Positions 63,640 to 63,951 of a stretch of DNA of 64,000 bases are shown here, piece after piece. Within the stretch, counting starts at the first letter, position 1; every line of letters begins with the position of its first letter. The DNA is taken from assembly GCF_001677475.2 (NCBI RefSeq), contig NZ_CP015229.1. One strand, given 5' to 3'. A program made the position numbers and the translations under genes. Below the pieces are notes generated by a model, which had not been told where the DNA came from, searched no databases, and was given only the letters and a program-made list of their open reading frames with translations. This DNA comes from Escherichia coli. GTDB lineage: Bacteria > Pseudomonadota > Gammaproteobacteria > Enterobacterales > Enterobacteriaceae.

Positions 63640-63664
63640 GGGACATCAATACCTGATGCCGACT

Positions 63665-63812
63665 TGTACGCCGCCGGATAAGGCGTTTATGCCGCATCCG
63701 GCGGTTGTGTGCGGATGCCTGATGCGACGCTGGCGCGTCTTATCATGCCTACGAGTTCGATACTCTGTGTAGGCCGGATAAGGCGTTCACGCCGCATCCG
63801 GCAGTTGTGCAG
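63665..63812. repeat. BIME (cluster of REP elements)
   Basis: Three copies of GCCGGATAAGGCG..GCCGCATCCGGC-type palindromes in alternating orientation. Confidence 0.65.
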
Positions 63813-63837
63813 TACCGGACTTAACACCATGCACAAT

Positions 63838-63880
63838 CTGTCCCCTCGCCCCTTCGGGGAGAGGGTTAGGGTGAGGGGGA
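63838..63880. repeat. GC-rich hairpin element (boxC-like)
   Basis: GTCCCCTCGCCCCTTCGGGGAGAGGGTTAGGGTGAGGGGGAC nested palindrome. Confidence 0.35.
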
Positions 63881-63951
63881 CAAACGGCGCAGCTCTTAAC
63901 ATCAGGCACGATCTATTCCCAGACTTTTAGAGCGTGGCTAAGGGGGAAACC

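Follow-up and report, generated by a model that had tools for sequence, protein, structure and literature searches.

The ytfQ-ytfR spacer and its interrupted neighbour gene

The window, a 64,000-nucleotide stretch of Escherichia coli DNA, ends in the ppa-ytfQ-ytfR region, and positions 63640-63951 (312 nt) form the spacer between ytfQ and ytfR. The genes and the insertion around this spacer are as follows.

60667-60673 and 63083-63089: 7-bp target duplication GTAAGTT, recognized by comparing the junctions with intact K-12 ytfQ
60674-63082, plus strand: IS21-family (ISEc10-like) insertion, 99.8% identical to annotated ISEc10-family plasmid elements
60766-62265, plus strand: istA, an open reading frame in the IS21-family element
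62262-63017, plus strand: istB, likewise an open reading frame in the IS21-family element
63083-63639, plus strand: 3' fragment of ytfQ, the galactofuranose-binding protein gene (open reading frame, translation and RefSeq annotation of matching E. coli loci)
63637-63639, plus strand: TGA stop codon of ytfQ
63942-63946, plus strand: GGGGG, the ribosome-binding G-run of ytfR, read from the sequence
63952-63954, plus strand: ATG start codon of ytfR

The original prediction named the two genes, gave coordinates for the elements between them and labelled the repeats a BIME, all of which was correct. It also placed an IS upstream of the spacer. The IS is present, but it is more than an upstream neighbour, because it splits ytfQ itself, interrupting the gene after codon 136. 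Since the binding protein is destroyed and 2.4 kb of foreign DNA is interposed, the transporter is probably non-functional, and a polar block on the operon is probable irrespective of the spacer. In the source genome the operon is thus probably inactive and the spacer a relic, which would make its regulation there moot. As a separate observation, the 8.7 kb around the IS element showed a best identity of 98.3% to any of 5,426 complete E. coli genomes, which suggests an Escherichia/Shigella lineage not represented among them.

Between the two genes, a truncated REP head is followed by REP A, REP B, a 16-nt tail-to-tail linker, REP C and then a BoxC element. The K-12 RefSeq record carries no annotated repeat features at this locus; the literature on ytfQ and ytfR did not address the spacer, and no transcript data for the locus were found in it.

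REP cluster and BoxC element

The REP part of the spacer consists of the following elements.

63649-63662, plus strand: truncated REP head ATACCTGATGCCGA (ATACCTGATGC at 63649-63659), a direct repeat (D4) with the head of REP B
63671-63704, plus strand: REP A, Y type, inverted; palindrome I3 with 14-bp arms, and direct repeat D1 with REP C
63716-63752, plus strand: REP B, Z2 type, forward, with a GCCTAC end; inverted repeats I2, I5 and I7 with REPs A and C
63769-63804, plus strand: REP C, Y type, inverted; inverted repeats I2 and I4, and an exact match to the inverted-Y consensus

Three REP palindromes in alternating orientation had been predicted, and repeat detection combined with consensus matching confirmed them as inverted Y, Z2 and inverted Y. 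REP A has two mismatches to the inverted-Y consensus and REP B has one to the Z2 consensus; these sequences and the definition of BIME-2 follow the work of Gilson, Bachellier and Hofnung. The palindromes I3 and I4 and the GCCTAC/GTAGGC tails agree with REP units, which are imperfect palindromes of about 35 nt that carry a conserved GTAG/CTAC tail, and the Y/Z2 alternation in inverted orientation is also carried by the inverted repeats I1, I2, I5 and I7. REP C is a 92% direct repeat (D1) of REP A, exactly 100 bp downstream. Related REP copies occur within the 64-kb window at 11916, 18723, 45366 and 52273, and REP matches were found at a median of at least 39 places per E. coli genome.

The lack of an IHF-binding L motif between REPs is the mark of BIME-2 as opposed to BIME-1/RIP. 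The linker between REP A and REP B is only about 11 nt long, and the IHF-binding consensus WATCAANNNNTTR has no match in 63640-63951; because of this absence, we assign the cluster to the BIME-2 kind. The Rfam family naRNA4 (RF02564) matched 63672-63749 on the plus strand over its full 77-position model, scoring 73.3 bits where the gathering score is 59.5, and a second match at 63772-63816 scored 42.5 bits, below the threshold. The naRNA4 model is essentially a model of a Y-Z2 REP pair, so the match shows REP identity and is no evidence of nucleoid function.

Downstream of REP C lie the following features.

63821-63892, plus strand: BoxC in the wide sense, comprising a conserved left flank, the core and a partly complementary right flank (BLAST extent, query 17-88, and alignment of nine copies), with the outer inverted repeat I6
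63840-63881: GC-rich hairpin GTCCCCTCGCCCCTTCGGGGAGAGGGTTAGGGTGAGGGGGAC, folded as the 43-mer 63840-63882
63843-63878, plus strand: BoxC/PIT/TMECO 36-mer, type A mm, CCCTCGCCCCTTCGGGGAGAGGGTTAGGGTGAGGGG, occurring once in the window
63856-63879, sense strand: canonical G-quadruplex (G4) motif GGGGAGAGGGTTAGGGTGAGGGGG, with four G-runs of at least 3 and loops of 1-7 nt, here 3 nt
63857-63877, plus strand: HPG1 21-mer GGGAGAGGGTTAGGGTGAGGG, the exact HPG1 sequence of PMC5100583
63895-63920, plus strand: CTTAACATCAGGCACGATCTATTCCC, in which the BoxC left flank recurs (direct repeat D2, 81% across 26 nt)

The 43-bp nested palindrome predicted just upstream of ytfR proved to be real, and the 43-mer folds into a nested 16-bp stem of -25.5 kcal/mol. 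The element has been named BoxC (Bergler 1992), PIT element (Hoyne & Maher 2000) and TMECO (Holder et al. 2015), as set out in PMC4666352. Table 1 of PMC4666352 lists 23 copies in MG1655, the commonest of which, "type A mm", reads CCCTCGCCCC-loop-GGGGAGAGGGTTAGGGTGAGGGG. The 36-mer of the spacer equals TMECO entries of that table except for one loop base, and the type A mm blocks CCCTC(G/T)CCCC, loop, GGGGAGAGGG, TTA and GGGTGAGGGG are exact at 63843-63878 apart from the variable first loop. HPG1 was proposed as a G-quadruplex/hairpin/duplex switch with 16 copies in K-12, none of them at ytfQ-ytfR (Kaplan et al. 2016, PMC5100583). BoxC, PIT, TMECO type A mm and HPG1 are one element with four published names, and the identity of the REP and BoxC elements in the spacer is close to certain. 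The names ytfQ, ytfR and ytfT do not occur in two supplementary text files of PMC4666352.

BoxC is a dispersed family. Of 5,426 complete E. coli genomes, 5,408 contain BLAST matches to 63805-63952, at a median of 16 places each. We aligned copies from nine loci (phnK-phnL, fepB, tldD-aaeR, cstA-ybdD, lptG-yjgR, yhjE-yhjG, ypfG-tkt, one O-antigen-type locus and ytfQ-ytfR), which share the near-invariant core GCACnATCnGTCCCCTCGCCCCTTyGGGGAGAGGGTTAGGGTGAGGGGnAC; all eight of the other copies inspected lie between genes. TMECO copies are reported to be always intergenic and to favor neither strand, nor any particular distance to an ORF or class of neighbour gene (PMC4666352). A scan of 100,044 species genomes with the 21-mer gave matches that include, among those listed, Pseudomonas (at least 30 copies per genome), Bradyrhizobium, Polaromonas and Contendobacter, as well as Desulfobulbaceae, Verrucomicrobiales, Gracilibacteria and a Methanomicrobiaceae (archaeal) MAG. 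Of 124 copies among the matches listed, 104 have the C-rich arm CCCTCNCC ahead of the 21-mer. This spread across phyla is not a new observation, since Holder et al. (2015, PMC4666352) had already described the G/C-rich motif from over 260 prokaryotic genomes.

The suggestion that the nested hairpin is a regulator specific to this locus did not survive these comparisons, because it belongs to the dispersed BoxC/PIT/TMECO repeats and because about 84% of E. coli genomes, K-12 among them, lack it at this site.

The possibility that the left flank at 63895-63920 opens a second unit was also considered. Its local alignment score of 27 exceeds the maximum of 24 obtained in 500 shuffles, and a similar right flank is present at the ypfG-tkt copy; a degenerate second unit may begin there. 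A reading of 63895-63947 as a full degenerate second BoxC unit that supplies the Shine-Dalgarno sequence of ytfR was rejected, as statistical support extends only to the 26-nt left-flank repeat and the 12-nt match D3 is too short to support a full unit.

Folding of the RNA had been suggested as a check, and a stable structure was indeed predicted for the whole spacer, at -135.8 kcal/mol (z = -3.8, with none of 100 shuffles as good). In this predicted fold, REP A forms its own hairpin, REP C pairs with REP B and the GC-rich element again forms its own hairpin. By itself, the GC hairpin does not stand out from sequences of equal composition: z = -1.75, and 10 of 200 shuffles folded equally well. 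We therefore take the BoxC hairpin to be real on account of the near-invariant dispersed repeat, and not on account of its folding energy.

A strong GC stem at this position could be an intrinsic terminator of the ytfQ transcript, or the spacer could hold an internal promoter for ytfR; the downstream control envisaged in the original prediction points in the same direction. However, no U-run follows the stem (GGGGGACAAACGGCG), which is followed instead by CAAACGGCG, and a consensus scan of 63000-64000 revealed no plus-strand terminator-like site and no sigma-70-like promoter. PIT elements have shown no promoter or terminator activity and left RNA polymerase unaffected (Hoyne & Maher 2002, cited in PMC4666352). 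Because the scan was empty and the published PIT tests were negative, we reject both the terminator and the promoter, which seem scarcely credible.

BoxC might also serve in the ytfR leader as the hairpin/G-quadruplex switch that Kaplan et al. proposed for HPG1. Under such a switch, ions or protein factors would cause the G-rich half to come out of the hairpin as an RNA or DNA quadruplex, altering transcription across the site or the translation of ytfR 69 nt downstream. Besides the sense-strand motif at 63856-63879, whose loops are 3 nt long, the 64-kb window has only one other canonical motif. Circular dichroism detected both hairpin and G4 forms of HPG1 oligonucleotides (PMC5100583), and the free energies calculated for the two forms are close (Table 3, PMC5100583). 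Furthermore, translation in E. coli is reported to be enhanced in some cases by an RNA G4 in the 5'UTR (PMC11087576). On the other hand, ViennaRNA predicted the hairpin to be twice as stable as the isolated G4 (-25.5 versus -12.6 kcal/mol), and the minimum-energy fold was unchanged when G4 formation was allowed. The absence of BoxC from this spacer in 84% of E. coli genomes, the lack of strand bias or a preferred ORF distance in the family (PMC4666352), and the negative PIT tests cited in that paper also argue against a switch. We consider it very unlikely at this spacer. More improbable still is a version in which BoxC is a recently acquired, strain-specific hairpin/G-quadruplex switch that retunes translation of, or read-through into, ytfRT-yjfF in the roughly 16% of lineages that carry it, with the left-flank duplicate as a footprint of the mobilization of this cross-phylum repeat.

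Purine-motif triplexes do not form in RNA (introduction of PMC4666352). Because the hairpin is the more stable form by prediction and this triplex is unavailable to RNA, a transcribed BoxC would be expected to adopt the hairpin. The hairpin predicted for the RNA has 16 bp; as single-stranded DNA the element may fold into either a G-quadruplex or an intrastrand triplex, and the published in vitro data come from other copies that have the same sequence.

Spacer alleles in E. coli and other genera

At least four alleles of the spacer occur in E. coli, as given below.

Short allele (K-12/DH5alpha), 139 nt: REP A and REP B, followed directly by the ytfR ribosome-binding site; no REP C and no BoxC
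Short truncated allele (HCM-27C-1), 132 nt: like the short allele, with REP B truncated
Medium allele (1002W03, CFSAN018748), 212 nt: one Y REP, BoxC and tail
Long allele (the window, 312 nt; strain 504838, 307 nt): three REPs, BoxC and tail

BoxC lies in the ytfQ-ytfR spacer of 877 of the 5,426 E. coli genomes, together with one or three REPs, and the three-REP junction (REP B tail, REP C, BoxC) was found in about 634 genomes among the matches listed. The truncated REP head in front of REP A is conserved in all E. coli alleles compared. The sole invariant stretch is GGGGGAAACCATG, which is present in all of these alleles and also in an Enterobacter-like locus. The medium and long alleles differ by exactly the 100-bp period from REP A to REP C, which is the outcome expected from recombination between these direct repeats. 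In a comparison of 56 E. coli strains, TMECO loci varied far more than control spacers did, and an "intergenic change" was scored in 39% of TMECO-site comparisons but in less than 1% of control comparisons (PMC4666352). The polymorphism at ytfQ-ytfR agrees with this published variability. The presence or absence of BoxC and the change in REP copy number make the spacer a hypervariable, repeat-bearing intergenic site of E. coli, and a clean example of spacer diversification within one species through differences in whole REP units and BoxC.

A role at the DNA level was also considered. The BIME-2 could be a gyrase or nucleoid site, or the source of an HU-binding RNA like naRNA4, while a BoxC triplex could stall replication forks and promote rearrangement. 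Gyrase binding to BIME-2, reportedly described by Espeli and Boccard in 1997, is established. The naRNA4 score lies above the gathering score. In vitro, the TMECO single strand adopts a stable triplex, and rearrangements are more frequent at TMECO loci than at controls (PMC4666352); the ytfQ-ytfR spacer shows exactly such rearrangements. However, the triplex was seen neither in duplex DNA nor by in vivo DMS footprinting (PMC4666352), the naRNA4 match reflects REP identity and not nucleoid function, and a DNA-level role leaves the unrelated hairpins at the same place in other genera unexplained. A DNA-level role is thus unlikely in our view; it would be compatible with a role in RNA, as the two are non-exclusive.

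The spacers of other genera were obtained from the contigs of YtfQ orthologues and folded, with seven genera sampled. The spacers outside E. coli were as follows.

Enterobacter-like (metagenome contigs), 105 nt: its own inverted REP pair, predicted at -61 kcal/mol, and then the same GGGGGAAACCATG
Hafnia, 96 nt: unrelated GC-rich stem-loop after ytfQ
Pantoea, 71 nt: unrelated GC-rich stem-loop after ytfQ, and then a T-run
Dickeya, 69 nt: unrelated GC-rich stem-loop after ytfQ
Yersinia, 78 nt: unrelated GC-rich stem-loop after ytfQ
Serratia, 22 nt: no stem-loop, the sole genus sampled without one

An unrelated GC hairpin thus follows ytfQ in four to five of the seven genera sampled, and the Enterobacter-like locus has a REP pair at this place. 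In the predicted folds, the position of a stem-loop after ytfQ has been kept while its sequence was replaced, which is the best evidence in this study for a selected structure. The locus is a clean example of a stem-loop after a binding-protein gene that is kept across genera despite sequence replacement. The hairpins of the other genera could be attenuators or terminators and not stabilizers.

These comparisons also bear on the view that the repeats are purely selfish or neutral. REPs would then have spread through recombination and a REP-associated transposase, and BoxC in some other way. On this view only the ribosome-binding site of ytfR is constrained, so that the spacer tolerates repeats. 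The coexistence in E. coli of alleles with one, two or three REPs, with and without BoxC, is consistent with it, and so are the invariance of GGGGGAAACCATG alone, the 22-nt spacer of Serratia, and the fact that ytfQ is already broken in the source genome. The hypervariability of TMECO loci and their lack of any trend in gene class or distance (PMC4666352) point the same way. In contrast, a strong stem-loop follows ytfQ in 6/7 of the genera sampled, formed by unrelated sequences, and this is hard to explain without selection; REPs also measurably stabilize transcripts elsewhere (PMC10100675). We hold the purely neutral view to be possible, and it deserves real weight.

Proposed role and comparison with known systems

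We favor the explanation that the spacer carries known repeats, of which the REPs act as an mRNA barrier and BoxC is a passenger, and give it a probability of roughly 0.8. Both components belong to repeat families known since the 1980s-1990s, so the elements are already known and add little new biology. In the proposed mechanism, the REP stems in the polycistronic mRNA would block the 3'-to-5' exonucleases PNPase and RNase II. The barrier would preserve the upstream ytfQ segment and cut full-length read-through into ytfRT-yjfF, and the YtfQ binding protein would be produced in larger amounts than the membrane and ATPase subunits. BoxC would be a functionally neutral, unstable passenger at this site.

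BIME-associated attenuation is a known effect of such clusters. REPs and other 3' stems are barriers to PNPase and RNase II, and RhlB or polyadenylation is needed to overcome them (PMC10100675). For the REP part of this spacer, a barrier role would follow by analogy with established REP biology, and its chances seem to us evenly balanced. The stem-loops kept after ytfQ in most of the other genera sampled fit such a role. The original prediction assigned to the region the control of how much ytfR-ytfT-yjfF message survives, and this has to be turned around, since the documented effect of REPs is protection of the upstream segment, here ytfQ, together with attenuation of read-through. The barrier is not obligatory, as Serratia does without any hairpin in its 22-nt spacer. 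The exact number of REPs cannot matter much, because one-, two- and three-REP alleles all persist.

An effect on translation was also considered. A REP within 15 nt of a stop codon reportedly influences translation, as described by Liang, Rudd and Deutscher in 2015. This effect was rejected for ytfQ, whose stop codon lies about 25-30 nt ahead of the first complete REP stem.

BoxC is probably a passenger, because the element is reported to be without promoter or terminator activity and to mark unstable loci. The ytfQ-ytfR case is at the same time a clean example of how one GC-rich element has come to stand under four names.

Compared with BoxC/PIT/TMECO/HPG1 elsewhere, the copy described here has the same 36-mer, CCCTCGCCCC-loop-GGGGAGAGGG-TTA-GGGTGAGGGG, the same intergenic location and the E. 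coli left flank GCACnATCnGTCCCC. It differs in that it lies outside the 23 K-12 copies, in that it is a single type A unit whereas A+B inverted pairs occur elsewhere, and in that a duplicated left flank follows it. With naRNA4, the nucleoid-associated RNA derived from REP325, the REP A and REP B pair shares a fit to the full model; the genomic locus is another one, and the match reflects shared REP sequence.

The cluster resembles BIME-2 and the REP/PU sequences (Stern et al. 1984; classes of Gilson, Bachellier and Hofnung) in its 34-37-nt imperfect palindromes with a GCCTAC/GTAGGC tail, in the alternation of Y and Z2, and in a short head-to-head linker without an IHF site. It is likewise extragenic within an operon, follows a binding-protein gene and varies in copy number among strains. 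There is no substantive difference, although REP A is slightly degenerate here and a truncated REP head stands in front.

The closest counterparts in position are the intercistronic sites malE-malF and hisJ-hisQ, which Newbury et al. reportedly described in 1987 as stabilized by REPs. At these sites, as at ytfQ-ytfR, REP stems directly follow the gene of a periplasmic binding protein and precede membrane and ATPase genes; the analogy for ytfQ-ytfR is positional only. If the REP-barrier role is true, ytfQRT-yjfF would join the ABC operons with REP-mediated differential expression.

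Arm pairing and the conserved BoxC core

The C-rich arm of the window's BoxC hairpin, CCCTCGCCC at 63842-63851, was compared with the G-rich sequence at 63869-63878. Opposite the distal block GGGTGAGGG, the central G of this arm makes a G-U wobble; opposite the proximal block GGGAGAGGG, it faces A in a G-A mismatch. Perfect pairing with the proximal G block results when the arm centre is T, the base found in most non-enterobacterial copies (72 T and 30 G among the matches listed). The BoxC copy between cstA and ybdD carries A at this position and pairs perfectly with the distal G block. 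Thus, the preferred G-block partner of the arm changes with the arm variant.

The BoxC 21-mer GGGAGAGGGTTAGGGTGAGGG was found exactly in very distant taxa among the matches listed in a contig scan of species genomes, preceded there by a CCCTC(T/G)CC arm and then a variable loop. Among these listed matches, the 21-mer occurred in at least 30 copies per genome in Pseudomonas, with flanks conserved by lineage, and was also present in Bradyrhizobium, Verrucomicrobiales, AT-rich contigs of Gracilibacteria (CPR), and one Methanomicrobiaceae MAG, the core being unchanged across phyla.

Duplicated flank and orthologous spacers

The 26-nt left flank of BoxC (63820-63845) has a second copy 75 bp downstream at 63895-63920, with 81% identity, and none of 500 shuffles reached the score of this copy. 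A comparable right-hand segment, CATCAGGCACnnTnnAnTCCCAG, was present at the ypfG-tkt BoxC of other E. coli. It seems, therefore, that the copying of BoxC either carried additional adjacent DNA along or took place in tandem partial units.

In the orthologous ytfQ-ytfR spacers of an Enterobacter-like genome, Hafnia, Pantoea, Dickeya, and Yersinia, a strong GC stem-loop lies immediately behind the ytfQ stop codon, and these five structures differ from one another, genus by genus. The 22-nt Serratia spacer (L139) was without a stem-loop.

Stem-loops after ytfQ in the orthologous spacers:
about 2158-2260 of contigs L133, L136, L137, L138, and L140

Other elements and published distribution

The following features were located in the window:
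60674-63082, IS21-family, ISEc10-like element with plus-strand istA and istB
52244-52256, minus strand, IHF consensus site AATCAATATATTG
52273-52302, Y-type REP, 17 bp from the IHF consensus site
11916-11945; 18723-18752; 45366-45401, further REPs
43197-43218, plus strand, canonical G-quadruplex motif GGGCGGGGGCCAAAGGGTAGGG

The IS21-family element is inserted in ytfQ past codon 136 and is bordered by an intact 7-bp target duplication, GTAAGTT (60667-60673 and 63083-63089); ytfQ is a pseudogene through this insertion. The 8.7-kb segment at 52000-60700 reached a top identity of only 98.3% against 5,426 complete E. coli genomes, so the DNA probably comes from a Shigella or another Escherichia lineage that this set lacks. 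Besides BoxC, the G-quadruplex motif is the sole canonical one of the 64-kb window, and its sequence is not related to BoxC. The IHF site and Y-type REP at 52244-52302 may constitute an element of the BIME-1/RIP type. As for BoxC, its broad distribution is already in print, in more than 260 genomes (PMC4666352).
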